DNA of 64,000 bases from Candidatus Latescibacterota bacterium (GCA_963667175.2 CAXXXF010000006.1:352001-416000), one strand, 5' to 3'; positions 8,507 through 64,000 are shown, counted from the first letter of the stretch. A program made the numbers and translations. The notes: a model not told the origin generated them from the letters alone.

Positions 8507-8598
8507 GCCGTCCGATTCAATCGCTTACCGGGCTGGACCGACCCGGAACGACCCTGGATCGCGTCGCATCCGGCGCTGCTGGTTGCAGAGAATTACGC

Positions 8599-8627
8599 TT
8601 GACACCCACATATCGCTTTTGTATTTT
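8599..8627 (+). promoter_or_regulatory. Sigma70 promoter for tRNA-Thr
   Basis: TTGACA-N17-TATTTT, 55 nt upstream of the tRNA. Confidence 0.7.
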
Positions 8628-8682
8628 ACACGCTCTCGATACTGAACGATAATGATCTGTTTTTCATTGCTTTAGCGCTTTA

Positions 8683-8757
<75 letters not shown>

Positions 8758-8758
<1 letters not shown>

Positions 8759-8809
8759 CAAAGAGAAAAGGGCTGGTGTGATTCGATACACAAGCCCTTT
8801 TCTCTTTGT
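8758..8809. terminator. Long bidirectional terminator between the tRNA and tal
   Basis: ACAAAGAGAAAAGGGCT...AGCCCTTTTCTCTTTGT 17-bp inverted repeat between convergent genes. Confidence 0.85.
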
Positions 8810-8842
8810 CGGCTGAATCTGTTGGCCAGGTGTCGCTGCGGA

Positions 8843-9511
8843 TCACACGATAACCGTCTCCCGCTGGTTTTCCTTCCACGCGTTCCAATCGTCCAAAAAG
8901 CGCTCCAGACCGTCATCCGTCAGTGGATGCGCCAGCAGTTTCTTCAACACGTCCGGCGGCAACGTGGACACATCCGCCCCGTAGCGGGCGGCATCGATGA
9001 CATGCAGGGGGTGCCGCAAGCTGGCCGCAAGGACCTCGGTCCCGAATCCATAGTTGTCGTAAATCTGTCGTATGGTCTTGATCAACTCCATGCCGACGTG
9101 CCCGATATCGTCCAGGCGTCCGAGAAAAGGGCTGATGTAGGACGCACCGGCCTTCGCGGCCAGAAGCGCCTGATTCGCGGAAAAGCACAGTGTAACGTTG
9201 GTTCTGATCGCTTCATCGCTGCAGGCCTTGATCGCCTTCAGGCCGTCCAGCGTTATCGGGACCTTGACCACCACGTTGTCGTGGATGCTCGCAAGATGGC
9301 GTGCTTCCTGGAGCATCAATCTCCACTCGGTACTCACGACCTCGGCGCTGACCGGCCCGTCCACCAGCTCGCAGATTTCCAGTACGATCTGCTCAAACGC
9401 GCCTTCTTCCTTTGAAATATGCGTCGGATTGGTTGTCACACCATCCAGCACCCCCATCTCGTTGGCCTCACGTATCTCATCCAGATTGGCCGTGTCGATA
9501 AAAAACTTCAT
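8843..9511 (-). CDS. tal: Transaldolase (TalC/MipB-type)
   Basis: [21 protein letters not shown]; Glu in 'SAEV' and Phe in 'SPFLGR' indicate transaldolase rather than FSA (Gln/Tyr). Confidence 0.93.
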
Positions 9512-48195: not shown

Positions 48196-49059
48196 ATGAC
48201 CGAAAACGCAACCCGGCTCAAAGCCGCTCTTCTGGCGCTGGGCATTCTCGTCGTAGGTGTGATTCTGGGCGCAACTGCCCATCGCTGGGTTCCCGCTGTA
48301 GGCGATAGACAGGCGCATAAGCCCCCCCCGGAACGCCCACGCATTCCTCAACCGGGCGCAACGTCAGAACGCCTGTTGAAGCGATACTCCCGGAATCTGG
48401 ACCTGACCGATGTACAGCAGACGGAAATCGATCAGATCCTGGATCAGAGCCGGGAACTGATGGTCGAGGTGCGGAAGAATATCGGTTCGAAGATCGAAAC
48501 GGTGAGGCGGGACACGTGGGCCAAGATCCGCGACGTCCTCACACCCGGTCAGCAGGAGATATTCGACGAGTTGACCAGCCCGGTATCCCCGAACATTATC
48601 CTTCGGCAATTCAAGAGACGTCTCGACCTCAATGAGGATCAGCAGGCGGAAATCTCACGCATTCTCAAGAGCAACTGGGCAGAAATGAGAAGAATGCGCC
48701 GGAAAATCCGGGAGAGACTGAAGGAGATTCATAAAGATTCACGTGCCGAACAACTCAACCTTCTCACGCCTGAACAGAGGAAACAGGCCAAGGGCAGATG
48801 GAACCCGAATCTCTCGGGCGAGCAGCGTACGGAAATGGATCGCATCAGGAGAGAGAGTCGCGAGACAACGCGCCGGCTCTTTCAGGAACGCGACGAGCAA
48901 CTGGGTCTGGCGGTGCGGAAGACGTGGCTGGAAGTCAAGACCCACCTCGACTCCAGTCAGGTGGCGAAGTTCCATCGAATCACGGACGGTATCGAGCGGC
49001 GCATGAAGTGGGAACGGCAGTCCCGACGTAGACCGGGCGGCAGACCTACCAGATTCTGA
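48196..49059 (+). CDS. Membrane-anchored helical protein with duplicated Spy/CpxP-like (LTxxQ) units
   Basis: N-terminal TM helix; LDLTDVQQ...VLTPGQQ, LDLNEDQQ...LLTPEQR. Confidence 0.75.
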   Translation: MTENATRLKAALLALGILVVGVILGATAHRWVPAVGDRQAHKPPPERPRIPQPGATSERLLKRYSRNLDLTDVQQTEIDQILDQSRELMVEVRKNIGSKIETVRRDTWAKIRDVLTPGQQEIFDELTSPVSPNIILRQFKRRLDLNEDQQAEISRILKSNWAEMRRMRRKIRERLKEIHKDSRAEQLNLLTPEQRKQAKGRWNPNLSGEQRTEMDRIRRESRETTRRLFQERDEQLGLAVRKTWLEVKTHLDSSQVAKFHRITDGIERRMKWERQSRRRPGGRPTRF

Positions 49060-49067
49060 GGGACGAG

Positions 49068-49095
49068 GGAACACTCTCAGTCTATCATTTGTCTA
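49068..49095 (+). promoter_or_regulatory. Internal ECF (sigmaE-like) promoter
   Basis: GGAACAC-N16-GTCTA upstream of the Spy-like gene at 49214. Confidence 0.7.
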
Positions 49096-49213
49096 TAGCG
49101 TAGAGCCCCTCCGAGTGGACGACCGGACTGCAGCCGGTCACGGCAGGGCTGGTCGCCTGCGGGCAACCGCCCCTAATGAACAGCAAGCCGGGTTAACGGA
49201 AAGGAGAAACAAC

Positions 49214-49729
49214 ATGAAACGTCTCGCCATCATCGCGGCCGTCGTCATTCCCATCCTTGTCATCGCCTGGGTGCTGCCCACAAACGCACATCGGGGCAAG
49301 CGAGGCTGGAAGGGCGGGAAGGCGCCAATGGCGGCCCTGGAACTGACAGCGGAACAGAGAACCAGGATGGAAAAACTCAAACTGGCGCAGGCCAAACAGA
49401 TGGCTCGACTGCGTGCCGACCTGAAGGTCGCCAGACTGGACCTCCGGGCCGCGATGAGGAAGGACGAGCCCGATGCCGCCGACGTCAAAGCGAGCGTTGC
49501 CGCCGTAAATGGCGCCCGATCCCTGATTCTGGAAAGCCGCGTCGACCACCGGCTCAAGGTCAACAGCATCCTGACACCGGAGCAGCGGACCAAGCTTCGT
49601 GAAATGCGAAGGGATCGATCCAGGAAGGGGTGGGGCAAAATGTGGCGCAAGGGACGCTACCATAAGCGGTTTCGGGGGATGGGAGAAAAACGCCCCGACG
49701 GCGCCGACAACCGCCCGTCTTCAATCTGA
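49214..49729 (+). CDS. Spy/CpxP/ZraP family periplasmic chaperone
   Basis: AAGGAG RBS; signal peptide; LELTAEQ...ILTPEQRTKL. Confidence 0.85.
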   Translation: MKRLAIIAAVVIPILVIAWVLPTNAHRGKRGWKGGKAPMAALELTAEQRTRMEKLKLAQAKQMARLRADLKVARLDLRAAMRKDEPDAADVKASVAAVNGARSLILESRVDHRLKVNSILTPEQRTKLREMRRDRSRKGWGKMWRKGRYHKRFRGMGEKRPDGADNRPSSI

Positions 49730-49760
49730 CTGAATCTGCCGGGATAGGAAGGTTTTCGAG

Positions 49761-50813
49761 ATGTTGTTTCGCAAATTATCCATCACGTCCGTCATTGCCT
49801 CGATCGCACTCTTCGCGTGCGGAAACAAGATCCCCGTCGAGTCCCCGGCGGGGGCCGGATCCAACGAAAGCGCAACTCAGGCCGCAAAGGCGTCCACGGA
49901 CGAAATCAGCTCCAAACTGTATGACGAACGCTCCGACAAGTCCCGGTTCGGACACCACGGAGGACGGAGATTATCCATTGACGCGCTGACCGACTCCCTG
50001 GGCCTGAGTGACGAACAGGTTTCAGCGCTCGAGGAACTGAACGAATCCTTTGCCGAGAACGTCAAAGCAGCGATCGAAAGTGCCAGGGCATCCGGCGACC
50101 GCAAGGGGCTTCGCGTGAAGTTGCGGGAACTGAGAAAGGAATATGAGAAAGACTTCAACGATGTCCTGACGGACGAGCAGCATGCCCGACTCGAAGAAAT
50201 CAGGGCCAATGCGGCCGTGCGCAGGAAAGACCAGGGGTGGGAAAATACCATCGCCGCGCTCACCGACACCCTGGGCCTGAGCGACGCACAGGTCGCGGAC
50301 CTCAATGAGTTGTATGAAGACTACCAGGCCGACGTCAAGACCGCGATCGAAAACGCTCAGGAATCGGGGGACCGTTCCGAACTCCGCACCAGTTTGAAGG
50401 TATTGAGACAGGCATTCGAAGACGCCTTCAACGACGTCCTGACGGATGAGCAACAGGCCCGACTCGAAGAAATCAGGGCCAACGCGGCCGCCCGCAGGAA
50501 AAACCGGGGATGGGAAAATACCATCGCCGCACTGACCGACTCCCTGGGTCTGAGTGACGAACAGGTCGCGGACCTCAACGAATTGTATGAAGACTATCAG
50601 GCCGACGTCAAAGCCGCGATCGAAAACGCTCAGGAATCGGGTGACCGTTCGGAACTCAGGGAGAAGCTGCAAGAATTGAGAGAAAATTTCGCGGAGGACT
50701 TCACCTCCGTGCTCACCGATGAACAGAAGGAGAAGCTGGACGAGATGAAGTCCGAGGGGCGGAAACGCAAAGGAAAGGGACGCCGGCACGGCCACAAGGG
50801 CAGAAAGGGTTAG
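49761..50813 (+). CDS. Lipoprotein with three tandem 91-aa Spy-like repeats
   Basis: Lipobox LFA-C; repeats LGLSD.QV..L.EL...VLTDEQ..RL.EI; basic C-terminal tail. Confidence 0.8.
   Translation: MLFRKLSITSVIASIALFACGNKIPVESPAGAGSNESATQAAKASTDEISSKLYDERSDKSRFGHHGGRRLSIDALTDSLGLSDEQVSALEELNESFAENVKAAIESARASGDRKGLRVKLRELRKEYEKDFNDVLTDEQHARLEEIRANAAVRRKDQGWENTIAALTDTLGLSDAQVADLNELYEDYQADVKTAIENAQESGDRSELRTSLKVLRQAFEDAFNDVLTDEQQARLEEIRANAAARRKNRGWENTIAALTDSLGLSDEQVADLNELYEDYQADVKAAIENAQESGDRSELREKLQELRENFAEDFTSVLTDEQKEKLDEMKSEGRKRKGKGRRHGHKGRKG
49983..50747 (+). repeat. Intragenic tandem repeat, 273-bp period, about 2.8 copies
   Basis: Units start at 49983, 50256 and 50529 (GC.CT.ACCGAC.CCCTGGG.CTGAG.GACG..CAGGT). 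Confidence 0.92.
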
Positions 50814-52547: not shown

Positions 52548-52892
52548 ATGGAGGTTAACACCGAGCGGAACAACGGCACCTTGATCGCGAAGGCTGAGGG
52601 GCGCGTCGACGGGTCCAATGCCCGAGAGTTCGAGGAGGCGCTCGATTCCGCGATCACCCAGCATGAAGACGGTCAGGCCGTGATCGTGGATTTCGAAGGG
52701 CTTTCATATATTAGCAGCGCGGGCCTTCGGGTCATCCTGCTGACCGCCAGAACGCTTCGAAAACAGGACAAGGAATTTGTAGTCTGCTCGCTCTCTGACC
52801 CGATCAGGGAAGTCTTTGAAATCAGCGGATTCGACAAGATAATACCGGTTTACGCCTCCAGGTCCGAAGCGATGGCAGCAGTTGGAGGATAG
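52548..52892 (+). CDS. STAS anti-anti-sigma factor (RsbV/SpoIIAA-like)
   Basis: AAGGAG RBS; GRVDG, VDFEGLSYISSAGLRVIL with the phospho-Ser; EVFEISGF. Confidence 0.92.
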   Translation: MEVNTERNNGTLIAKAEGRVDGSNAREFEEALDSAITQHEDGQAVIVDFEGLSYISSAGLRVILLTARTLRKQDKEFVVCSLSDPIREVFEISGFDKIIPVYASRSEAMAAVGG

Positions 52893-53092
52893 CAACGGGT
52901 TGGTCCGGGACTTCTTCACGCAAGCACATTGTGTTCGCTGCGGAAGTACCACGGGTGGAAGCGACATTGTAACCGTACCGGGTTCTCCGGGCGATCACCG
53001 GGGCGTCGGCAGAATGGCCGGCGCGACCGCCGTGTTGTCCCCGGGTAGCCGACGGTTCCACCTGAATCTCCCGAGAAACTGAAAGGCCGACC

Positions 53093-54766
53093 ATGATCGA
53101 AGACCTGCTGCCGATCGGTTTGCTCATCGTCGTCGCCAAGCTCCTCGAGTGCCTCCTCGACCGCATCGGACTGAGCTCGATTGTCGCCTACACGGCGGCG
53201 GGAGTAATCCTCGGCCCCATCGCGGGTATTGTTGAGCCAACCAGCAAGCTTCAGATCTTCCTGGGCATCGGCGTCTTTATCCTCTTCTTCCTCGTCGGCC
53301 TCGACGAAATAGACATCCCCGGCTTTGTGGCAACCATCCGGGGGCGTTTTTTTTATGCGGCTATCCTTTCAGTTGCGATCTCGATGGTTGCGGCCATGGT
53401 GGTCACGTCGAACCTCTTCGACGTGGATTTCTCTCTCAAACTCCGCTTCAAGGATGCGCTTGCGCTCGCCGGAATCCTTTCGATGTCAAGCCTGGGGCTT
53501 GTGGCGAAGGTGCTGGCAGACAAGGGATATCTAAAGGAACCCCTTGGCCTTGAAATCTTCACCACCGTCATCATCGCCGAGATGATCACACTCCTGGTCG
53601 TTGGATTCAGCATCGGCGAACATACCATCGGCGCGCACGACCACCTCTGGGGCGGCGCCGTCAGCGTGGTATTCCTGCTTGCGCAGGTCGCGGCTTTCGC
53701 GGTTGTGGCGTGGATTCTGTCCGCCAGAGTGATGCCGCCGACAATTCTCTTTCTGAAACGGATCTTCAACGTCCCCGAGCTGTCGTTCGGATTGCTGATG
53801 GGCGGCCTGTTTCTGATGGTCGTCGTTGCCGAAGAAATGGGGCTGCACGGGTCCATCGGCGCTTTGCTATTCGGCGCGGCGCTCTCGGGCCTGCCGCGTC
53901 AGGTACACAATGACGTTATGCCCGGCATCCGCAGCGCGGCGGAAGGCCTCTTTGTTCCTATCTTCTTTGCGTCGGCCGGCTTGCGGCTCGATTTTTCCTT
54001 CCTTTCCCTGCCGGCGGCAACCATTATCGCGGTTCTGACGGTTCCCGCCGTGGGGAAATTCGCCGGCGCATTCATTGGCGCCTACGTGGCTCGACTCGAC
54101 AAACCCTACGCGCAAGCGACCGGACTGATGGCAAAGGGTGTGGCCGAAATCGCGCTGCTGCTGGTCCTGCTGGAAAACGGCGTCATTGGACAGGACGTGT
54201 TCTCGCTGGTCGTGCTCGCGATGTTCGGCTATATCGTGCTGATGCCACAGGCAATTTCATCTGCGGTCAACAGAGCACGCCTGACTCACCGCCCGACGCC
54301 GCCGGACGTTGTACCGGCCTCCTTCGCGCGCCGCGCCCTCGACGACATCAGAGCCAGTCACGTTCTGGATCCATCCCGGTCGTATCCCGATGTATCGCTG
54401 TCAATCAGGAGATTCGCCGATGAGTGGATCGTACCGGATCAACAGGACTACGTCGTGGTTGACAACGGCGCCGTTGCGGGGACCGTTTCGCCGGCACGGC
54501 TGACGTCTGTACCGACGGGGTCCTGGGCGGACACGCCGCTCCAGCGTGTGCTCCGACCCGACCCGCCCCACGTCGAACCCGACGAGCCCATTGTAGACGT
54601 TCTTCAAAAGCTGTCACGCCACTCCATGTCGGTGATACCGGTCCGGGACAAGGACTCACACGATTTCCTCGGCACCATAACCAGTCACGACGTCGTCGAC
54701 CTTGTCCTTCTTATGGATGAAATCGCCGACGAGTTGAAGGAGATGGAAAAACAAAGGGCGAATTGA
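53093..54766 (+). CDS. Cation:proton antiporter (CPA2-like) with C-terminal CBS domains
   Basis: About 13 TM helices; GVILGP, IGALLFG, FVPIFFASAG, GKFAGA, AKGVAE; C-terminal CBS-like pair (IPVRD...FLGTITSHDV). Confidence 0.85.
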   Translation: MIEDLLPIGLLIVVAKLLECLLDRIGLSSIVAYTAAGVILGPIAGIVEPTSKLQIFLGIGVFILFFLVGLDEIDIPGFVATIRGRFFYAAILSVAISMVAAMVVTSNLFDVDFSLKLRFKDALALAGILSMSSLGLVAKVLADKGYLKEPLGLEIFTTVIIAEMITLLVVGFSIGEHTIGAHDHLWGGAVSVVFLLAQVAAFAVVAWILSARVMPPTILFLKRIFNVPELSFGLLMGGLFLMVVVAEEMGLHGSIGALLFGAALSGLPRQVHNDVMPGIRSAAEGLFVPIFFASAGLRLDFSFLSLPAATIIAVLTVPAVGKFAGAFIGAYVARLDKPYAQATGLMAKGVAEIALLLVLLENGVIGQDVFSLVVLAMFGYIVLMPQAISSAVNRARLTHRPTPPDVVPASFARRALDDIRASHVLDPSRSYPDVSLSIRRFADEWIVPDQQDYVVVDNGAVAGTVSPARLTSVPTGSWADTPLQRVLRPDPPHVEPDEPIVDVLQKLSRHSMSVIPVRDKDSHDFLGTITSHDVVDLVLLMDEIADELKEMEKQRAN

Positions 54767-54890
54767 CCCCGTACCGGACTATTCGTATCACGATGGACCG
54801 CGAACGAAACGGGGACCGGATAAAACCCGTTCACGCATGTCCGCAGGATTCGGAAATTCAGCAAACCATCCTATCCCTGGACAATTCGAA

Positions 54891-56060
54891 ATGTCAGCAC
54901 TCCCGTACAAAATTCTGGTAGTGGACGACGAACCCGACCTCGAACCGCTCATGCTGCAGCGAATGCGGCGTCCGATCCGCCGGGGCCGTTACGCGTTCGT
55001 ATTTGCGCAAAACGGGATCGAGGCTCTCGAACGGTTGAACCAGGACAACACCATCGATATGGTGCTGTCCGACATCAACATGCCCAAGATGGACGGCCTC
55101 ACGCTGCTCGAGCAGATACCCAAAGTGGACCCGAATATCCGTTCCGTGATTATCTCTGCGTACGGCGACATGAAGAACATCCGGATCGCAATGAACCGCG
55201 GCGCGTTCGATTTCGTCACCAAGCCCATTGACTTCTCGGACCTTCAGGTCACGATCGATCGAACCATGCGCCATCTGATCGAGTGGCGGGAAGCGCTCGA
55301 ATCACGCGACAAGCTGATTGCACTGCAGAACGAACTCGACGTGGCCAGCAAGATGCAGCAATCGATTCTTCCAACCCGGTTTCCCGAGTATCCGGCCTAT
55401 CAGGCATACGGAAGCATGGAACCCGCCCGTAACGTCGGCGGCGACTTCTTCGACATCATCCGGCTCGAAGACGGTCGTATCGGCATTGCGATCGCCGACG
55501 TTTCGGACAAAGGCGTTCCAGCAGCCCTCTTCATGATGTCGAGCCGGACGGTGTTGCGGGGCGCGGCAATCGGAACCACAAATCCCGGTGAGGTATTGTT
55601 CGAAGTCAACAATTCGCTCTACGAGAACAATGAAGCCGCGATGTTTGTCACCGTCTTCTACGCGGTATTCGATCCCGCGAACCGGCAGTTCACGTACGCC
55701 AACGGCGGCCACAATTCTCCGCTCATCGTCAACGCGAACGGTGAAGCGACCCTGCTGCCCCTGACGGGCGGAGTCGCCCTCGCAATGATGCCGGACATCG
55801 AATACGGATACAATTCGGTCACACTGGCGCCGGGCGATACGGTTATACTTTACACCGACGGCGTGACGGAAGCCATTGACAGCGCGGAGGTAGAATTCGG
55901 CGTCAAGCGCCTGCAGGACGTTTTCTCGGGCGCGCCTCCGCAGGACGCCCGGGAAGCCAACGGCGCGGTCTTTGATGCCGTGAATGACTTCGTGGGGGAC
56001 ACTCCCCAGTTCGACGACATAACCTGCGTTACGTTTCGGTACAGGGGGGAAGAGACGTGA
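54891..56060 (+). CDS. Response regulator-PP2C phosphatase (REC + SpoIIE; RsbU/RsbP-like)
   Basis: ILVVDDE, SDINMP.MDG, SAYG, KP; QQSILP, VGGDFFD, IADVSDKG, NGGH, YTDGVTEA, QFDDIT. Confidence 0.93.
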   Translation: MSALPYKILVVDDEPDLEPLMLQRMRRPIRRGRYAFVFAQNGIEALERLNQDNTIDMVLSDINMPKMDGLTLLEQIPKVDPNIRSVIISAYGDMKNIRIAMNRGAFDFVTKPIDFSDLQVTIDRTMRHLIEWREALESRDKLIALQNELDVASKMQQSILPTRFPEYPAYQAYGSMEPARNVGGDFFDIIRLEDGRIGIAIADVSDKGVPAALFMMSSRTVLRGAAIGTTNPGEVLFEVNNSLYENNEAAMFVTVFYAVFDPANRQFTYANGGHNSPLIVNANGEATLLPLTGGVALAMMPDIEYGYNSVTLAPGDTVILYTDGVTEAIDSAEVEFGVKRLQDVFSGAPPQDAREANGAVFDAVNDFVGDTPQFDDITCVTFRYRGEET

Positions 56061-56476
56061 GTGCGAGACAATCCTTTCGTATTGGCGCGGATCTCGACGA
56101 ATTGCGACGGGTCGCCGAAGCAGCCGAGGAACTGGGGCTGCAGGAAGACTGGTCCCCGGCCATGGTGCACCAGGTAGATCTCGCCATTGAAGAACTTGGA
56201 AACAACATCGTCCGACACGGGCTCGCCGGCGGCCCGGGCGAGATAGAGATTACATTGACCTCGGACGCCAAAACGATCAAGATTGAGATTTCGGACGACG
56301 GCCAACCCTTCAATCCGCTTAAGGACGCGCCGAAACCCGATCTGGAAGCCGCGCTTGAGGATCGACCCATCGGCGGACTCGGCATTCACCTGGTACTTAC
56401 GATGATGGATGAGATGCACTACCGGCGAGAGAACGAAAGGAATCACCTGACACTGGTGAAGCGGAGGGCCGGATGA
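56057..56476 (+). CDS. RsbW/SpoIIAB-like serine kinase (anti-sigma-type ATPase)
   Basis: LAIEELGNNIVRHG, ISDDGQPFNP, RPIGGLGIHLV; 4-nt overlaps on both sides. Confidence 0.9.
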   Translation: MSARQSFRIGADLDELRRVAEAAEELGLQEDWSPAMVHQVDLAIEELGNNIVRHGLAGGPGEIEITLTSDAKTIKIEISDDGQPFNPLKDAPKPDLEAALEDRPIGGLGIHLVLTMMDEMHYRRENERNHLTLVKRRAG

Positions 56477-57654
56477 GATTCGCGCTCCGCACGTCGACGA
56501 GGTTTTTTGTCGCTTGGGTCGCGCTGGCGCCCGCCATTGAGGCCGGCGGGTTGGAAACGGGAGTCTCGGACACGAGCATCGTTTTCGGCCAGTCCGCCGC
56601 CTTCACAGGGCCCGCGGCGCAACTCGGCGCCGACATGAAACGCGGTATTGAAGCGGCATTTCACGAGATCAACCGGCGCGGCGGTGTCCACAACCGACGG
56701 TTGGAGCTCGTTTCTCGCGATGACGCATACGAGCCGGAAGCCGCCATTGCAAACACCCGTTACCTCATCAACGAAGCACAGGTGTTCGCGCTCATTGGCG
56801 CCGTAGGCACGCCCACGTCCCGTTCAGCCACCCCGGTCGCTGCAGAAGCAAATATTCCATATATCGCGCCGTTTACGGGTGCGGCGTTTCTCCGCGAAGC
56901 CAAATGGAACAACGTGATTAACCTGAGGGCGTCGTACAACCAGGAGACGGAAGAAATGGTGGCGCGCCTGACAGGCGACCTTGGTGTCAGGCGCATCGCC
57001 GTCCTGTACCAGGACGATTCCTTCGGAAGGGCCGGATACCACGGCGCGCGTCGCGCACTCGAACGGCGAGGTATGGAGGCCGTGGCCGTGGGGTTGTATC
57101 CGCGCAATACAACGGCAGTGAAAACGGCATTGCTCGACTTGCGCATGGCGTCTCCCGAGGCGGTGATTCTGATTGGCGCGTATGGTCCGGTTGCCACGTT
57201 TATCGCATGGGCGCGGCACATCGGTTGGGACCCTGTTTTCATTACCATTTCATTCGTGGGCAGCAATGCGCTCGCCAGGCAGTTGGGCCCCGAGGGAGCG
57301 GGAGTCTACGTCACCCAGGTCGTGCCGTTTCCTGCCGACGACTTCTTCCCTGTCGCATCGGCCTATCGCCGGGCGCTCGCAACCTCCGAGCCCGGTGCGG
57401 CTCCAGGGTTCGTCTCCTTCGAAGGGTACCTGGCCGGTCGCCTCGCCATCGCCGCTCTCCAGCGCTGTGGCCAGGACGTAAGGCGGGCCACCTTTCTCAA
57501 CAGCCTTCGCAGTACCAGAATTGTCGATATCGACGGATTTGAACTGCGATACGGCAGCCAGGACAACCAGGGGTCGGATGCCGTTTTCCTGACCATGATC
57601 GGTCGTGACGGACGCTACTATCCAATCGAAAAGCTCCAGGAAGCGGCGCCGTGA
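56473..57654 (+). CDS. Type-1 periplasmic binding protein (Leu/Ile/Val-binding fold), probable sensor partner
   Basis: Signal peptide; FGQSAAFTGPA, DDAYEP, GAVGTPT, RASY..E, YQDDSFG, SFEGYLAG; no ABC permease or ATPase nearby. Confidence 0.88.
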   Translation: MRFALRTSTRFFVAWVALAPAIEAGGLETGVSDTSIVFGQSAAFTGPAAQLGADMKRGIEAAFHEINRRGGVHNRRLELVSRDDAYEPEAAIANTRYLINEAQVFALIGAVGTPTSRSATPVAAEANIPYIAPFTGAAFLREAKWNNVINLRASYNQETEEMVARLTGDLGVRRIAVLYQDDSFGRAGYHGARRALERRGMEAVAVGLYPRNTTAVKTALLDLRMASPEAVILIGAYGPVATFIAWARHIGWDPVFITISFVGSNALARQLGPEGAGVYVTQVVPFPADDFFPVASAYRRALATSEPGAAPGFVSFEGYLAGRLAIAALQRCGQDVRRATFLNSLRSTRIVDIDGFELRYGSQDNQGSDAVFLTMIGRDGRYYPIEKLQEAAP

Positions 57655-59852
57655 TCCGTACACTGAAACAGCTTCTCAAAGGCCGCTTCCGCATCGCCAC
57701 GCAACTCTATCTGGGAATCGGCGGCGCGGTTGCCATCACCATGGTCGCGAGCCTGGTCGGATGGTTCTCATTTGACCTCGTCGGCGATATCCAGAACCGC
57801 GTGAACGAGGGCAGCGTCCCGGAAATGGCCGCCGCGTTTGGCGTCGCCCAGCAGAGCGGCACCCTGGTCGCCGCGGCGCCCCGTTTGACCTCGGCCGCTA
57901 CGGTGGCTGACTTCGTTCGAGTCAAGGCGGACATTGCCACAGAGCGCAGGGCCTTTGAATCACAGTTGGCAGCCCTGGTACAAGGGGACACCCGGAAGGA
58001 AGACGAGGAGCGATTCCGCCGAATACACAGCTATGCCGCCGCGCTGATGTCCAACATCGACGCGATTGAGCGGGAGGTCGCCGAGCTGTTCGAGGTCAAC
58101 TCGCGAAGCGAAGAACTGCGTGCGGAACTGTCCAATCTTCGGTCGAAATTGTCCGGCATGCTCATTCCGGCCATCGACGACCAGTTGTTCTACGCGATGA
58201 CAGGCTACCGCACAATCGGCCAGCCGCCCGCGTCCCGCGAGCGGCATTTTTCGGACGAAGAATTCGATCGGTACCGCCACCTCGCCGATTTAAAAGCCGA
58301 TGCCACCATCGCGACACAGCTGCTTTCAAGTTCATTCAACCTTTCGGACGCACTCCTGTTGGAGCCGTTGCGCGAACGCTTTGAGGCCGCTGCCGGGCGC
58401 ATCGAACGCAGCCTGTCGGCACTGGGTACATCTCCATGGCGCGACCAGATCGCACCGCACCTGAACTGGCTCTTTGAACTGGGACTGGGCGAACAGGGCG
58501 GGTTTGACCTTATCGTTCGTGAGTTCGAGCTGACCGACCGGCAGCGCAACCTCCTGCAGGACAACCTGAGTCTTGAAATCAAGCTCGGCGCGGAAGTCGA
58601 GGGTCTCGTCAGCGCCGCCCGCGAACGCACACGCGAGGCCACGCTGGCATCCACACGGGCCATTGGAACCGGTCGCAGCGTACTGCTGGGGCTGAACGTG
58701 GTCAGTATCACCGGCGCCCTGCTGATCGCGTGGCTCTTCGTCGGCCGCGTGCTATTGCGACGGCTCGGACGGCTGTCGAACAGAATGCAGGGGATGGCCG
58801 ATGGCGACCTGGAAGCCAAAGTCGATATCAGCGGAAACGACGAAGTCGCGGATATGGCGGCGGCACTGGAGGTATTCCGGCGGCATGCCCTCGAAGTCCA
58901 GCGCCTGAACCTCGTGGAAAAACTCGCAGAGGAGTTGCGTGAGAAGAACGAACAGCTGGAAGCCGTGCTGGAGGACCTCCGGAAGGCGCAGGACCAGATC
59001 GTAATGCGCGAAAAGCTGGCGGCGCTCGGCGAACTTACAGCCGGGGTGGCGCACGAAATCAAGAACCCGCTGAACTTTGTCAAGAATTTCTCCGAGGTCT
59101 CGCAGGAACTTCTGGAGGAACTTGGAGAGGAACTCCAGGACACACTCAGCGAAGAAGGCGGTGAACTTGACGAAGAGGGGCGCGAACTCGTCCAGGAAAT
59201 ATGCCAGGATCTCAACGACAACCTCGCGCGCATCCGGGAACACGGCGAGCGGGCCAACCGGATCGTACAGGACATGCTTTCAATGGGTCGGGGTTCGGCT
59301 CAGCGACAGGCCACCAACATCAACAACCTGCTCGACGAGCACGCCCGGCTCGCCTACCATAGCGCCAGAGCGAGCGACACCGAATTCCAACTCGATATCA
59401 AACAGGATCTGGACCCTTCCGTTGGTGACGTCGAGGTCGTCCCTCAGGATCTGGGCCGCGTATTCCTGAACATGGTAAGCAACGCCTGCCATGCAACCGA
59501 CGAGAGACGACGCGGCGTCGAACAGTCGGAAGACAACAAGGATTCTTACATGCCCACATTGTGGTTGACGACCCGACGTGACCCGGAACATCTGGTCGTG
59601 AGAATCCGGGACAATGGCACCGGAATGCCGCCGCAGGTCGTAGAAAAGATCTTCAACCCGTTTTTCACCACGAAACCGACAGACCAGGGCACCGGGCTCG
59701 GTCTTGCACTCTCCAATGACATCGTGCGCGAGCATGGAGGCAGCATCCGGGTCGAAACCGAGCCCGGCGAATATACGGAGATGATTGTAGAGATTCCCCT
59801 GGAAGCGCCCGCGTTGGTGGCGGAGGAGACCACCGTTGAGGATTCATCCTGA
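57651..59852 (+). CDS. Sensor histidine kinase with TorS-like periplasmic domain, HAMP, HisKA and HATPase
   Basis: TM1 region ASLVGW...VPEM...AAAPRLTSA resembles E. coli TorS (recalled from memory); HAMP GDL...DEVADMA; H-box AGVAHEIKNPLNF; DNGTG, FNPFFTTK, GTGLGL. Confidence 0.9.
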   Translation: MIRTLKQLLKGRFRIATQLYLGIGGAVAITMVASLVGWFSFDLVGDIQNRVNEGSVPEMAAAFGVAQQSGTLVAAAPRLTSAATVADFVRVKADIATERRAFESQLAALVQGDTRKEDEERFRRIHSYAAALMSNIDAIEREVAELFEVNSRSEELRAELSNLRSKLSGMLIPAIDDQLFYAMTGYRTIGQPPASRERHFSDEEFDRYRHLADLKADATIATQLLSSSFNLSDALLLEPLRERFEAAAGRIERSLSALGTSPWRDQIAPHLNWLFELGLGEQGGFDLIVREFELTDRQRNLLQDNLSLEIKLGAEVEGLVSAARERTREATLASTRAIGTGRSVLLGLNVVSITGALLIAWLFVGRVLLRRLGRLSNRMQGMADGDLEAKVDISGNDEVADMAAALEVFRRHALEVQRLNLVEKLAEELREKNEQLEAVLEDLRKAQDQIVMREKLAALGELTAGVAHEIKNPLNFVKNFSEVSQELLEELGEELQDTLSEEGGELDEEGRELVQEICQDLNDNLARIREHGERANRIVQDMLSMGRGSAQRQATNINNLLDEHARLAYHSARASDTEFQLDIKQDLDPSVGDVEVVPQDLGRVFLNMVSNACHATDERRRGVEQSEDNKDSYMPTLWLTTRRDPEHLVVRIRDNGTGMPPQVVEKIFNPFFTTKPTDQGTGLGLALSNDIVREHGGSIRVETEPGEYTEMIVEIPLEAPALVAEETTVEDSS

Positions 59853-60016
59853 ACGGATAGGGCGCTCGATCCAACCGGCGGTCCTGCAGGTGGTCAGGGA
59901 CGGCAGTTTCGAAACGCTGGGGAGTTGACCGCACGTCGCGGCGGCGCAGAACCCGGCGAAGATGCCCTTCGATACCGACAACAAACATTGAAACCCGGGA
60001 TGTTCAGGCTGTCGCC

Positions 60017-61450
60017 ATGAATTTCGACACGTACGCTATGGATCGGGAGTTTTACGACGAGATGTTTCTTCCGGACGGCAGTCCCAGGGAGCACTGCCGC
60101 CCGCTTTTCGAAGCGCTGAGCGATCTCTCCAGGGAAGAACTTTCGAGCATCCAGGACCGGGTAACGCGTTCTTTTTCCAACGAGGGGATCACGTTTACCG
60201 TTTACGGCGACGAGGAAGCCACGGAACGCATCATCCCGGTCGACTGCGTGCCGAGGGTCCTATCGGGCGCCGAATGGGGTCAACTCGTTAACGGACTCAC
60301 CCAGCGCCTCGCCGCCCTCAATCGCTTTCTCCAGGACATATATAACGAGGCACGCATCATAGAAGACGGCGTTATCCCGGTGGATATGGTTAAGGGTTGT
60401 CCGCAGTACCGCGTGGAAATGCGCGGCGTTTCTCCACCCCATAGCGCCTGGGTTTCGATCTGTGGGACCGACCTCGTTCGCACCAACGACGGCTTTCTGG
60501 TCCTTGAAGACAACCTGCGCGTCCCCTCGGGTGTTTCGTATATGGTAGCGAATCGTAAGGCGGTGAAGGCAAGTCTGCGCCGCCTCTACAGACGTTCCCG
60601 CGTACAGGACGTGGAACATTATGGCAGGCTGCTGCGCGAGATTCTCGTCGATCTCGCTCCGGGCGGGCGGTCCGAACCCTGCATCGTGCTGCTGACGCCC
60701 GGCGTTTACAATTCGGCTTTCTACGAGCACATGTTTCTTGCCCGCGAGATTGGCGCTGCGCTTGTCGAGGGGCGTGACCTCCTCGTCAACGACGGCTTTG
60801 TCTACATGCGCACGACCACCGGCCTCCGGCGGGTGGACGTGGTCTACAGGCGCGTCGACGACGACTTTCTCGATCCCCTCGCCTTTCGCGCGGATTCCCT
60901 TCTTGGCGTGCCCGGCTTGCTCCACGCCTACAAACTTGGCAACGTGACCCTTGTGAACGCGCCGGGCACGGGTGTGGCCGACGACAAGAGCGTCTATGCC
61001 TACGTTCCGGACATTATACGTTACTACCTGGGAGAAGAGCCCTTACTGGCCAGCGTCGAGACGTACCTGTGCCGCCATCCGGAACAGCTTGAATACACGC
61101 TTGATAACCTTGAGAACCTGGTTGTAAAGCGGGTTGGCGAGTCAGGGGGTTACGGCATGCTGATCGGGCCCCACGCCACGCCGGAAGAACGCGAGGATTA
61201 CGCCAGGGAGTTGCGCGCCGACCCCGCCGACTTTATCTCCCAGCCGGTTCTGTCGCTTTCCCGCTCGCCGTGCCTGGTGGACGGCCGGTTCGAACCGCGG
61301 CACGTCGACCTGCGTCCATTTGTGCTCCACGGCCGGGAGACGCGCATCGTTCCCGGCGCATTCTGCCGGGTTGCCCTGCGTCGGGGCAGCCTTGTCGTGA
61401 ACTCAAGCCAGGGGGGCGGCGGGAAGGATCTCTGGGTCCTGGAAAACTGA
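60017..61450 (+). CDS. Circularly permuted type-2 ATP-grasp protein
   Basis: YDEM, GITFTVY, LEDNLRVPSGVSY, LTPG.YNSAFYEH, YRRVDDDFLDP, NAPGTGVADDK, SGGYGMLIGP, RHVDLRP, VVNSSQGGGGKDLWV. Confidence 0.95.
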   Translation: MNFDTYAMDREFYDEMFLPDGSPREHCRPLFEALSDLSREELSSIQDRVTRSFSNEGITFTVYGDEEATERIIPVDCVPRVLSGAEWGQLVNGLTQRLAALNRFLQDIYNEARIIEDGVIPVDMVKGCPQYRVEMRGVSPPHSAWVSICGTDLVRTNDGFLVLEDNLRVPSGVSYMVANRKAVKASLRRLYRRSRVQDVEHYGRLLREILVDLAPGGRSEPCIVLLTPGVYNSAFYEHMFLAREIGAALVEGRDLLVNDGFVYMRTTTGLRRVDVVYRRVDDDFLDPLAFRADSLLGVPGLLHAYKLGNVTLVNAPGTGVADDKSVYAYVPDIIRYYLGEEPLLASVETYLCRHPEQLEYTLDNLENLVVKRVGESGGYGMLIGPHATPEEREDYARELRADPADFISQPVLSLSRSPCLVDGRFEPRHVDLRPFVLHGRETRIVPGAFCRVALRRGSLVVNSSQGGGGKDLWVLEN

Positions 61451-61526
61451 GAAGACTGATTCCGAAGACGTTGGGAAGGCAAACCACGTATTCCGCCGTT
61501 GTGGCGAAACCACGAAAGGAGAGGGT

Positions 61527-62912
61527 ATGAGAAGTTCCACGAAAGTTCCATTTTACAAACGTGTCGGCGGTTCTCTGGGAAGAAACGTCCTGCTGCTGAT
61601 TGGCTGTCTGCTGTGCGGGAGCACCGCCGCATACGCGGCGGTCGACCAGGAGACCATGTTCGTCTTCAACACCTTCGCGTTTCTGATCTGGGGCGCGCTC
61701 ATTATGTGGATGTGCGCCGGTTTCACGATGCTGGAGTCCGGATCGGTACGCACCAAGAACGCCTCCATGATCTGTATGAAGAATATCGGCCTGTACTCCA
61801 TCGCCGGGCTCGCCTATTACTTCCTCGGTTACAACCTTATGTATACCGACGTCGGTAAGTTCATCGGCTCATTTTCACTCCTCTACGGCCCATCTACCGC
61901 CGACGTCGCGCTCGTGGGCGGACAGGAAACGGCGAAGGCCAAGGTGATCGCGAACAAGTATTCCACCATGTCCGACTGGTTCTTCCAGATGGTATTTGTA
62001 GCAACGGCCGCATCGATCGTCTCCGGCGCATTGGCAGAGCGGGTCAAGATGTGGTCCTTCTTCCTATTCACTCTGGCTCTGACGGCCGTCATCTACCCCG
62101 TGGTGGGCGCCTGGACCTGGGGAGGCGGGTGGCTGAGCGCAATGGGATTCAAGGACTTCGCCGGTTCGACCATCGTTCACAGCACCGGTGGCTGGGCGGC
62201 GCTTGCGGGGGCCCTGGTTGTCGGCCCGCGACTGGGTAAATTCAGAAAGGACGGCACTGTCAAGGCGACGCCGCCGTCCAATATCCTGGCGGTGACTCTG
62301 GGCGTATTCATCCTGTGGTTCGGCTGGCTCGGATTTAACGGCGGGTCGCAACTCGCGTTGGGCAGCGCCGCCGACGCGGTGGCAATGAGCCATGTGCTGG
62401 TCAACACGAATCTGGCGGCCGCGGCCGGCGTGGTCGTTGCCCTCATCATATCGAGACCGATCCTGGGCCGCATGGACCTGTTCGCCAGCCTGAACGGAGC
62501 CATTGCCGGCCTGGTCGCCATTACCGCAGGCCCCGACATCGTCCAGCACTACTGGGCCGTCGTTATCGGCGGCGTTGGCGCCATCGTCTGTACGGCCGGT
62601 ATCCGGCTGCTGGAGAAGTTGAGAATCGACGACGTCGTCGGCGCGGTACCTGCCCACCTGTTCGCGGGTGTCTGGGGAACGCTTGCGGTCTGCATCGCCG
62701 CGGGCGGCAACTTCGGCGTTCAACTTCTGGGTTGCGTCGCGGTCGGCGTGTTCGTCTTCTCGGTTTCTTGGGTGCTGTGGCGTCTGCTGGCAGCGACCCT
62801 GAGTGTCCGCGTGTCCGACAAAGTCGAACGGCTGGGCCAGGACGTCGGGGAACTCGGAATGGAAGCGTATCCCGAGTTCGTGCTTACACCCGAAGAGGCA
62901 GATGAGGACTGA
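61527..62912 (+). CDS. amt: Ammonium transporter
   Basis: AGFTMLESG..R.KN, FFQMVF, SIVSGALAER, DFAGSTIVH, LWFGW.GFNGGS, NGAIAGLVAITA, DDVVGAVPAH (twin His retained). Confidence 0.96.
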   Translation: MRSSTKVPFYKRVGGSLGRNVLLLIGCLLCGSTAAYAAVDQETMFVFNTFAFLIWGALIMWMCAGFTMLESGSVRTKNASMICMKNIGLYSIAGLAYYFLGYNLMYTDVGKFIGSFSLLYGPSTADVALVGGQETAKAKVIANKYSTMSDWFFQMVFVATAASIVSGALAERVKMWSFFLFTLALTAVIYPVVGAWTWGGGWLSAMGFKDFAGSTIVHSTGGWAALAGALVVGPRLGKFRKDGTVKATPPSNILAVTLGVFILWFGWLGFNGGSQLALGSAADAVAMSHVLVNTNLAAAAGVVVALIISRPILGRMDLFASLNGAIAGLVAITAGPDIVQHYWAVVIGGVGAIVCTAGIRLLEKLRIDDVVGAVPAHLFAGVWGTLAVCIAAGGNFGVQLLGCVAVGVFVFSVSWVLWRLLAATLSVRVSDKVERLGQDVGELGMEAYPEFVLTPEEADED

Positions 62913-63895
62913 TGACGACGAATCCTGGAAACCCCAGGCTTCTGGCCCGTAGCGCGCAGGGCCTCTATTGGATGGGCCGCTACCTGGAACGGGCGGAGCA
63001 TCTCTGCCGCCTGCTGCGATTTCAGGCCGAAGCGCTGGTGGATCGGCCAATCCGGGAGATTTATTTCGGATGGAGTCGAATCTACATGAGCCTGAACCGG
63101 CGGCCTCCCGGCGGCAGCATCACTATGGTGGGAAACGACGACTTCACGCTGGCGGATTCCTACACACTGGCCGACGATCTCACGTTCGAACGCGCAAATC
63201 CCGACTCCGTCTGGAACTGTTTCTCGCTCGGCCGCGAGAACGCGCGGCAGATGCGTCACTGCATCAGCGGGGAAATGTGGACTTGCCTGAACCTCGCGTA
63301 TCTGCGACTCCGGAAACTGAGCACTCCGGATATCTGGACGCCCTCTCCCGAGAGCTTTTATGCCACAACTGCAGGTGACATCAACACGTTTGCCGGCGTG
63401 GCGGAAGCAACGATGTATCGCGACGAGGGATGGCACTTTCTGCGGCTGGGGAAGCATATCGAGCGCGCCCAGTGTTCGGCTTCGTTGTTTCTCTCCCAGC
63501 TCTCAGTGGACAAACTGATGGACGAGTCCTCCGACGCGGACTGGATGAATCTCCTGCACGTCAGCCAGGCGTTTGATGCGTACAGCCGGAATTATAGCGT
63601 CGACGTCCAGCCACGTCGGGTCCTCGACCTCCTCGTTACCGACCCTTTGCTGCACGGCTCTCTCTGCTACTCGCTCGATGCGGTGGCCGCGGAACTCGAC
63701 GCCATCGGTCCGGGTTCCGGCGAGCAGTCCAGCGCAACAGCCCTGCGCATGGCCCGGCGTATGTGCGCGCTGATCCATTACGACTGGCCCGACCGGGAAG
63801 ACAGGGAGGCCCTCCTGGGAAACATCATGGGTTACTGCCGGGAACTGCACGATCTTGTTAGCGCCGCCTATATCGATTACGCCGTTGTCGATTGA
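62912..63895 (+). CDS. Alpha-E (DUF403) domain protein
   Basis: LYWMGRYLERAE, RENAR..R..IS.EMW, MYRDEGWHFLRLGKHIERA; TGATG overlap with the amt stop. Confidence 0.93.
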   Translation: MTTNPGNPRLLARSAQGLYWMGRYLERAEHLCRLLRFQAEALVDRPIREIYFGWSRIYMSLNRRPPGGSITMVGNDDFTLADSYTLADDLTFERANPDSVWNCFSLGRENARQMRHCISGEMWTCLNLAYLRLRKLSTPDIWTPSPESFYATTAGDINTFAGVAEATMYRDEGWHFLRLGKHIERAQCSASLFLSQLSVDKLMDESSDADWMNLLHVSQAFDAYSRNYSVDVQPRRVLDLLVTDPLLHGSLCYSLDAVAAELDAIGPGSGEQSSATALRMARRMCALIHYDWPDREDREALLGNIMGYCRELHDLVSAAYIDYAVVD

Positions 63896-63915
63896 CTCCC
63901 GGGTGTACAGATACC

Positions 63916-64000
63916 GTGTCCCGATCCGTCCAGTACGAAATCAGGCACGTCTCAAGCTACCTGTACGCATTCCCCGCGCGTGAGTGCGTGATGATGCTTT
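63916..64000 (+). CDS. Transglutaminase family protein, N-terminal fragment (runs off window)
   Basis: GTG 63916 gives MSRSVQYEIRHVSSYLYAFPARECVMML, matching the Y.I.H.T.Y.Y pattern of Bact_transglu_N; expected position after alpha-E. Confidence 0.7.
   Translation, partial: MSRSVQYEIRHVSSYLYAFPARECVMML

Follow-up and report, generated by a model that had tools for sequence, protein, structure and literature searches.

An ammonium transporter gene inside an ATP-grasp, Alpha-E and transglutaminase cassette of a Candidatus Latescibacterota bacterium: a probable nitrogen-acquisition cluster

Why does a gene for an ammonium transporter stand between two genes that in related loci follow each other with hardly a nucleotide between them? 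The question is raised by the 3′ end of a stretch of 64,000 nucleotides (nt) of DNA from a Candidatus Latescibacterota bacterium (GCA_963667175.2, CAXXXF010000006.1:352001-416000), hereafter called the window, which lies on contig C6 of the genome labelled G000 in this work. Here a gene for an ammonium transporter (Amt) separates the genes for a circularly permuted ATP-grasp ligase and an Alpha-E protein, and a gene for a transglutaminase-like cysteine hydrolase follows; the ATP-grasp, Alpha-E and transglutaminase-like genes are hereafter called the cassette. Analysis of the locus and its relatives points to a nitrogen-acquisition cluster, in which the four genes are probably co-expressed in a nitrogen-limitation response under a signalling cascade encoded upstream, with Amt supplying ammonium and the cassette proteins making and breaking an amide bond.

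The cassette resembles the Anbu operon, a gene set that was reportedly treated by Iyer et al. in 2009. The operon, known from Pseudomonas, Yersinia and other bacteria, is described as a set of ATP-grasp (COG2308), Alpha-E (COG2307), transglutaminase (COG1305) and Anbu genes (Valas and Bourne 2008, PMC3235984; PMC6376114; PMC5666114), the presence of Anbu in it being frequent but not universal (PMC5666114). The window has in common with it the three families, their relative order and the predicted combination of an amide-bond ligase with a cysteine hydrolase. It differs in that there is no Anbu, that Amt is intercalated between ATP-grasp and Alpha-E, and that a partner-switching cascade is found upstream instead of NtrC/sigma-54 control.

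Under nitrogen limitation no other gene set of P. putida is reported to be as strongly upregulated as the Anbu operon (PMC3235984, note added in proof; PMC6376114; PMC5666114). The genes I35_5080-5083 of Burkholderia cenocepacia H111, encoding a DUF404/407 protein, a DUF403 protein and two transglutaminase-domain proteins, are described as NtrC- and sigma-54-dependent, and in an ntrC mutant expression of the DUF404/407, DUF403 and transglutaminase genes was reduced 6- to 9-fold (PMC5491218). There the cassette genes are co-regulated with nitrogen-assimilation genes and amt lies elsewhere, whereas the link in the window is one of physical gene order and the regulator is presumably another. In marine metagenomes the cassette domains co-vary with urea-metabolism domains (PMC3597751). 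The ATP-grasp protein of Y. bercovieri frees phosphate from ATP and is an active ATPase, and the same study reports neither peptidase activity of Anbu nor a stable complex between proteins of the operon (PMC6376114). For Rv2411c and Rv2567, the homologues in M. tuberculosis, a preprint gives a negative result as candidates for gamma-aminobutyric acid (GABA)-trehalose synthesis, a result with no bearing on the real substrate (bioRxiv 10.64898/2026.04.15.718621). No published account of Amt inside the cassette, or of a pairing of Amt with a STAS protein, was found in the literature search. A preliminary description of the window had proposed that Amt ties the cassette to nitrogen; the recurrent adjacency of the two in several gene orders and phyla agrees with this, but the nitrogen link as such is not new, having been published for P. 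putida and B. cenocepacia. New here are the position of Amt inside the cassette, the return of this arrangement across phyla, the cascade as a constant partner and a possible tie to the loss of P-II.

The transporter gene and the cassette around it

Open reading frames and Pfam matches agree with the gene order described earlier, i.e. ATP-grasp, amt, alpha-E and the beginning of a transglutaminase gene. The four genes are co-directional on the plus strand and tightly spaced, with gaps of 76, -1 and -4 nt. The ATP-grasp gene (60017..61450) codes for 477 amino acids that match PF14403 (CP_ATPgrasp_2, 2.5e-154) and PF04174 (1.3e-137) and, in the PDB, 3N6X, a 'putative glutathionylspermidine synthase' (2e-162). 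A spacer of 76 nt (61451..61526) with the Shine-Dalgarno-like sequence AAAGGAG leads to amt (61527..62912, 461 amino acids), the stop codon of which (TGA, 62910-62912) has one base, 62912, in common with the ATG of alpha-E (62912-62914), giving the TGATG overlap that had also been recognized before. The Alpha-E protein (62912..63895, 327 amino acids) matches PF04168 at 5.3e-62 over profile positions 1-293 of 294. ATP-grasp and alpha-E are not adjacent at this locus, the spacer and amt placing 1461 nt between them; in the 19 loci with plain cassettes the distance from the ATP-grasp stop to the alpha-E start is 0-8 nt, or the genes overlap.

The transglutaminase-like frame starts with TTG at 63892, with a GTG at 63917, and its 5′ part (63892..64000) is inside the window; the stop is at window position 64788 (L002:4893-5789). 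The product matches PF08379 (Bact_transglu_N, 4.5e-19), PF01841 (Transglut_core, 4e-23) and the PDB entries 3ISR (2e-12) and 6G49 (4e-12), and Cys, His and Asp motifs, the assignment of which is our assumption, were seen in its translation. The three cassette proteins most likely make and break an amide or isopeptide bond. The transglutaminase gene is directly followed by a thiamine pyrophosphate (TPP) riboswitch (72.2 bits; window 64832-64921, L002 5833-5922) and, 3′ of it, thiC (L002 6113-7810), and is therefore the last gene of the row. No Anbu gene was found in the operon, the next place being occupied by the riboswitch and thiC. Matches to the proteasome family (PF00227) in the genome are confined to contig C15, where two adjacent ones (G000:C15:352901-354102), far from the cassette, may represent HslV, Anbu or a 20S pair.

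The insertion of amt into the cassette is not a misassembly, nor is it peculiar to this assembly. Two sponge-metagenome runs (X2 and X3), from a study other than that of the best-matching run, contain the stretch at 0.79-0.81 of sampled words, and contigs from both bridge the ATP-grasp/amt junction (X2 record 11, 60982-61658, with 1 difference; X3 record 28, 61330-61733, with 2 differences). An amt-less form belonging to a relative is present in the same runs as well, as a contig in which 12 other letters join the ATP-grasp stop (61450) to 62951. Of five further genomes of the family, four have amt immediately upstream of alpha-E, and a genome of another genus of the family (G082) carries the full row of ten genes described below, with STAS first and transglutaminase last, in unchanged order and with 67-85 % identity. 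A genome of a third genus (G067) has a plain cassette, in which the ATP-grasp and alpha-E genes are 16 nt apart and the transglutaminase gene follows; the orthologous Amt of this genome (78.5 %) is 278 kb away from the cassette, and a STAS gene is found about 830 nt downstream of that Amt. Within the same class, G065:C1:860680-862045 contains a marine-type Amt followed by an Alpha-E fragment of approximately the first 37 profile positions, which resembles the inserted arrangement in a decayed state.

The predicted Amt protein matches PF00909 (Ammonium_transp, 6.9e-99) with 331.7 bits against a cut-off of 23.2, over profile positions 3-399 of 399. The best-matching model is TIGR03644, 'probable ammonium transporter, marine subtype', which aligns over its full length (1-404 of 404) with 511.3 bits, 2.7 bits short of its cut-off of 514. 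The N-terminus contains a signal-peptide-like stretch. H218, H377, D210 and W196/W198 are in invariant columns of an alignment of 42 relatives, bearing out the earlier statement that the transporter is intact and has kept both pore histidines, which we take to be the equivalents of H168 and H318 of E. coli. It is the sole unbroken Amt found in its own assembly. A second amt (G000:C12:196357-197638; L087 6298-7690, minus strand) is split into two overlapping frames of 112 and 364 amino acids by a frameshift or an assembly error, its relatives having intact open frames of 464-482 amino acids; it adjoins a formate-tetrahydrofolate ligase gene and has a glutamine synthetase gene near it.

The AlphaFold model of Alpha-E is all-helical (pLDDT, a predicted score of the local distance difference test, 89.9). 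The sequence gave no match in the PDB at E <= 0.1 and the model none in a Foldseek search of the PDB at E <= 0.001, while the best hits of a wide VIA structure search were membrane helical bundles at Z 10.2 and a root mean square deviation of 6.6, below the approximately 13 that the tool gives as meaningful for helical proteins. The predicted structure of Alpha-E thus gives no functional lead.

Recurrence of Amt beside the cassette

Relatives of the locus were collected in two ways. A search with Amt, limited to one genome per species, gave 80 loci from many phyla with 48-90 % identity, in which the window proteins were searched by tblastn. The gene order of the window was found in four of these (L003 from Acidobacteriota, L006 and L015 from Chloroflexota and L063 from Latescibacterota) and the order Amt, ATP-grasp, Alpha-E, transglutaminase in two from Gemmatimonadota (L024 and L026). 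Parts of the signalling row described below were beside amt in 16 of the 80 loci, among them all six with a cassette. A STAS gene was near amt in 13 of the 80 by tblastn, and directly adjoined it in L004, L023, L025, L029, L031, L034, L043, L024 and L026. Pfam analysis of the two nearest amt neighbours in the 74 loci without a cassette (144 open reading frames from crude gene calls) identified P-II upstream in 17, STAS beside amt in 7 and the histidine kinase of the signalling row upstream in 2.

The Amt tree (87 rows, constructed with a quick method) consists of two clades, each with 100 % support. Clade A comprises 36 rows from Pseudomonadota, includes all 17 P-II-linked loci and has neither cassette nor signalling module. 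Clade B, with 51 rows from at least eight phyla, contains every cassette- or module-linked Amt, and P-II is beside amt in none of its examined loci. The earlier remark that amt is usually paired with glnK thus applies to the sister clade A (17 of 36 loci) but to none of the examined loci of the clade to which the window belongs. Genes for ammonia-releasing enzymes often adjoin amt in both clades, namely creatininase, hydantoinase/oxoprolinase, Amidohydro_2 and a glutaminase with ankyrin repeats (L007, L008, L030, L033, L035, L036, L037, L044 and L066).

The search with the ATP-grasp protein returned 80 metagenome loci, which were read by tblastn and Pfam. Amt was in reach in 12 of them. It was placed between ATP-grasp and alpha-E in L093, L094, L099 and L102, as well as in L112, where the locus ends after amt; after alpha-E in L106; upstream of the cassette in L109 and L119; and past STAS, at the edge of the locus, in L118 and L120. 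Two distant cassettes (L125 and L167) have an Amt of another subfamily (32 % identical) downstream of alpha-E. In L125 (3423-9610) the genes for ATP-grasp, Alpha-E, a 610 amino acid Amt and glutamine synthetase form one co-directional row, and in L167 the row is ATP-grasp, Alpha-E, Amt and DUF1646. The signalling row was beside the cassette in L095, L111 and L114, with no Amt in reach, and in L118 and L120; STAS adjoins amt in L094, L118, L119 and L120.

In all, ten loci have Amt exactly between the two core genes, the arrangement for which the preliminary description had proposed a genome-neighbourhood search. The spacer before amt in the inserted loci is 48-260 nt long, except for 812 nt in L094, in which an antisense STAS gene (8591-9064, minus strand) lies between ATP-grasp and amt, inside the cassette. 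The stop codon of amt overlaps the start of alpha-E in the window, L063 and L093. In a tree of 40 ATP-grasp rows the form from Gemmatimonadota branches separately, as a clade with good support, and the inserted forms are intermixed with plain ones. For the inserted order 6 changes are required on the free tree, and a single clade of inserted forms was not rejected (approximately unbiased test, p-AU 0.218). Overall, the adjacency of Amt and cassette takes at least four gene orders and involves two subfamilies of Amt and three lineages of the cassette.

Across at least eight phyla the Amt of clade B and the close ATP-grasp lineage show 65-90 % identity, a pattern that does not follow organismal descent. 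Transposase or integrase genes are beside amt in L005 and L065, and the sister Acidobacteriota loci L003 and L004 have nearly identical Amt but differ in the presence of the cassette. The same three parts, i.e. Amt, cassette and cascade, recur in sponge-associated bacteria of several phyla.

The upstream signalling row and P-II

The unit does not begin at 60017, where the preliminary description has its start: a row of six signalling genes (52548-59852), missed in that description, is directly upstream of the ATP-grasp gene, giving a full row of ten genes from STAS to the transglutaminase-like gene. All six are on the plus strand. The first codes for a STAS-domain protein of the anti-sigma-factor antagonist type (52548..52892, 114 amino acids; PF01740 at C6:404554-404871; TIGR00377, 8.1e-24) and is followed by genes for a Na+/H+ exchanger with a CBS domain (53093..54766; Na_H_Exchanger 1.8e-34, CBS 1.9e-07), a response-regulator receiver fused to a PP2C (SpoIIE) phosphatase (54837..56060; Response_reg 1.4e-23, SpoIIE 1.3e-49) and an RsbW-like serine kinase or anti-sigma-type HATPase_c_2 protein (56057..56476; 2.9e-29). 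A periplasmic binding protein of the Peripla_BP_6 family, LivJ/UrtA-like (56473..57654; 1.2e-58), and a histidine kinase with a TorS-like periplasmic sensor and HAMP, HisKA and HATPase_c domains by Pfam (57651..59852) complete the row. The Na+/H+ exchanger had no tblastn match in the 160 related loci and was found in G082; it is a passenger, seen only in the version of the row found in its own family.

Among the NCBIfam models, the best name for the receiver-PP2C protein was Pseudomonas-type RssB, far below the cut-off, and the HATPase_c_2 protein had weak RsbW/SpoIIAB matches. The binding protein matched LivJ-like (7.5e-16) and UrtA (7.8e-11) models, each below the cut-off, and the histidine kinase matched TIGR02956 (TorS) over residues 17-441 at 1.7e-47, also below the cut-off. 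The STAS protein carries an ISSAG motif, the serines of which are invariant in 22 relatives; the phosphorylation site is presumably in this motif, by analogy with SpoIIAA/RsbV. The parts of a partner-switching system, PP2C phosphatase, HATPase_c_2 kinase and STAS protein with a conserved serine, are thus all present.

Partner switching with a receiver-PP2C protein is known from the HsbR-HsbA system, and kinases of the TorT/TorS type depend on a binding protein. The row resembles RssB-type systems in its receiver-PP2C, HATPase_c_2 kinase and STAS protein with conserved serine, and TorT/TorS-type systems in its kinase with a TorS-like sensor encoded beside a periplasmic binding protein. It differs from both in that the binding protein is a LivJ/UrtA-like Peripla_BP_6 protein, that there is no output gene nearby and that the constant neighbours are Amt and the cassette. 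In SAR11 bacteria, Amt-GI5 is a fusion of Amt to a PPM-type phosphatase which is interpreted as an ammonium sensor (PMC11796062). What the two have in common is that, in marine bacteria, an Amt module is coupled to signalling of the PP2C type; there the fusion is covalent, whereas here the Amt is separate and looks transport-competent, and the phosphatase has a receiver domain.

A second Peripla_BP_6 gene is whole in L063 (2669-4402; 4.3e-58) and L093, between the kinase and ATP-grasp genes. In the window a remnant of approximately 54 nt (59875..59928, plus strand) matches, by eye, the last codons of the L063 gene, and the lineage of the window has therefore deleted this gene. No sigma-70-like or terminator-like site was identified in 59853-60016 or 61451-61526, in a scan that was at chance level overall (14 terminator-like sites compared with 11.1 ± 3.3 in shuffles), and no convincing sigma-54 -24/-12 element was seen by eye upstream of ATP-grasp. 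The RNA fold of the spacer 61451-61526 was no better than those of shuffles (z -0.72). The TPP riboswitch was the only riboswitch within window positions 59000-67000, and a search of 11 close metagenome loci gave no riboswitch and only a tRNA.

No glnK adjoins amt, in agreement with the preliminary description, and P-II (PF00543) was not found in the 95 %-complete assembly, in which the best tblastn match was a GntR-type regulator. Neither was P-II (GlnB/GlnK) found in the four genomes of the genus (G000, G061, G068 and G089; two closed chromosomes). The genus still carries Amt and glutamine synthetase, and two sister genera of the family have 2-3 copies of P-II. The locus thus resembles AmtB-GlnK pairs in having an Amt with conserved pore residues beside a small set of genes of regulatory type, but differs in that P-II neither adjoins it nor was found in the genus, the neighbours being enzymes and a STAS phospho-switch, whereas the sister clade A retains P-II upstream. 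For genomes carrying an Amt of clade B, the search for P-II was negative in 9 of the 11 that have the cassette beside Amt and in 1 of the 25 that do not, in a small sample with non-independent kin, in which the 9 of 11 amount to about four of six lineages and two metagenome-assembled genomes are of unassessed completeness. The apparent excess of P-II-less genomes among carriers of a cassette beside Amt is an unexplained correlate.

Other genes in the surroundings include three tandem LTXXQ/Metal_resist (CpxP/Spy-like) genes upstream of the cluster (window 48196-50813) and, beyond the end of the window (L002 11762-16632), genes for three PhyH-type dioxygenases, an O-methyltransferase and an RraA-like protein, with sulfatase and heparinase II/III-like genes at the flanks.

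What connects transporter, cassette and cascade

The reading that we hold to be probable is that of a nitrogen-acquisition cluster. Amt would import or recapture NH4+ and would be made together with the cassette proteins as part of one nitrogen-limitation response, as are amtB and the triad in the NtrC regulons of Pseudomonas and Burkholderia, with control coming from the adjacent cascade instead of NtrBC/P-II. The periplasmic binding protein would report its ligand to the TorS-like kinase, which would phosphorylate the receiver of the PP2C phosphatase, and the balance of this phosphatase with the RsbW-like kinase would set the phosphorylation state of the STAS protein. By way of an acyl-phosphate the ATP-grasp protein would form an amide or isopeptide bond, which the putative Cys-His-Asp hydrolase would remove. 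The signalling cascade is the most constant neighbour both of the Amt of clade B and of the window's own cassette lineage, which suggests that shared regulation is at least as strong an explanation as substrate coupling. On present evidence Amt and the cassette would be linked by co-expression rather than by any demonstrated channelling of substrate. Joint expression is weakly indicated by contigs from RNA libraries (X19 record 4, X20 records 20 and 24), which come from a relative with about 91 % identity and cover both junctions.

Several observations weigh against a nitrogen-acquisition cluster. The RNA-library contigs may derive from DNA, give no strand, level or transcript ends, and as two-gene contigs are no proof of one transcript. 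Nitrogen induction is published only for Proteobacteria (P. putida and B. cenocepacia) with Anbu-containing operons, and Anbu is absent here. No cassette was found within 6 kb of amt in 74 of the 80 Amt loci. Alpha-E occurs in 25 of 81 genomes of the window's own phylum, and none of the 18 with the canonical type (approximately 350 bits) has Amt nearby; apart from a few others, a single cassette lineage accounts for the link. Clade B has spread across phyla by transfer, and hence neighbours in common do not count as independent; the ten inserted loci may moreover have a single origin. In L094 the antisense STAS gene lies between ATP-grasp and amt, and amt is therefore not co-transcribed with ATP-grasp there. 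Finally, no cognate sigma factor or output gene was found among the annotated genes of window 45000-64788 or in the flanks of 12 related loci, nor was a DNA-binding output of the cascade seen nearby.

A more direct coupling, in which Amt feeds NH3/NH4+ to ATP-grasp/Alpha-E for ATP-dependent amidation in assimilation or storage, with Alpha-E possibly docked on Amt and the transglutaminase-like enzyme reversing the bond, was the mechanism proposed in the preliminary description. The chemistry put forward there, an amidation or gamma-glutamylation that uses imported NH4+, or a storage peptide, is neither supported nor contradicted here. The amt/alpha-E overlap in the window, L063 and L093 does resemble the tight coupling of ATP-grasp and alpha-E in the 19 plain loci, and the precise position of Amt between the core genes in ten loci, the row of L125 with glutamine synthetase, and the ATPase activity described for the Y. 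bercovieri protein (PMC6376114) are all as such a mechanism would have them. Most cassettes, however, have no adjacent Amt (68 of the 80 ATP-grasp loci and all 18 canonical-type genomes of the phylum), Amt may be found between, before or after the cassette genes or across the signalling row, and no member of the family has a known substrate. We consider direct coupling unlikely. A bolder variant is decidedly unlikely, namely a P-II-independent nitrogen circuit of P-II-less lineages, in which the ligase pair would read or consume ammonium from Amt and reversibly amidate or glutamylate a target or metabolite, the transglutaminase-like protein would be the eraser and the cascade would set the gain. 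If true, the Anbu-operon enzymes would be a writer/eraser pair for nitrogen status, not an accessory of proteolysis.

Amt could instead belong to the cascade and not to the cassette, being gated by STAS in a phosphorylation-dependent manner in the place of GlnK, or reporting ammonium flux to the phospho-switch, with the cassette as another gene set near the same regulator. This would fit the STAS genes near amt in 13 of 80 Amt loci, many of them directly adjoining it, the Amt of G067, which has STAS downstream and is far from a plain cassette, and the fact that P-II is never a neighbour in clade B, as well as the SAR11 fusion that is taken as an ammonium sensor (PMC11796062). Yet STAS is nine kb from amt in the window and its nearest relatives, where it is alpha-E that overlaps amt; Amt retains all transport residues and is the sole unbroken copy found in the assembly; and the signalling row is also beside cassettes without Amt (L095, L111 and L114). 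A complex prediction for Amt (residues 38-461) with STAS scored 0.15, against a mark of 0.32, and says nothing either way on contact. Gating or sensing of this kind is improbable in our judgement.

It is very improbable that the three parts have no functional connection and simply travel together on DNA exchanged among sponge-associated bacteria. The identity of Amt and ATP-grasp across at least eight phyla, against organismal descent, points in that direction, as do the fluid gene order, the transposase or integrase genes at amt flanks in L005 and L065, and the pair L003 and L004, with a near-identical Amt and a different cassette status. Against mere co-transfer, the association returns with another Amt subfamily and a distant cassette lineage in L125, there with glutamine synthetase, and L167, and again with the separately branching cassette clade of Gemmatimonadota. 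It is also stably kept, with reading frames that overlap, in two genera of the family to which the window belongs, and the independent nitrogen link from transcriptomes of Proteobacteria agrees with it.

The ATP-grasp/Alpha-E/transglutaminase set is widespread and has been without a known product since its definition in 2008-2009; its conserved physical links to Amt, to a phospho-switch that senses a ligand and, in one lineage, to glutamine synthetase narrow the search for this product to nitrogen acquisition. The apparent excess of P-II-less genomes, if upheld, would point to an unrecognised form of nitrogen control without P-II. For sponge symbiosis, the cluster is common to several symbiont phyla by transfer and probably matters for life on the nitrogen waste of the host.

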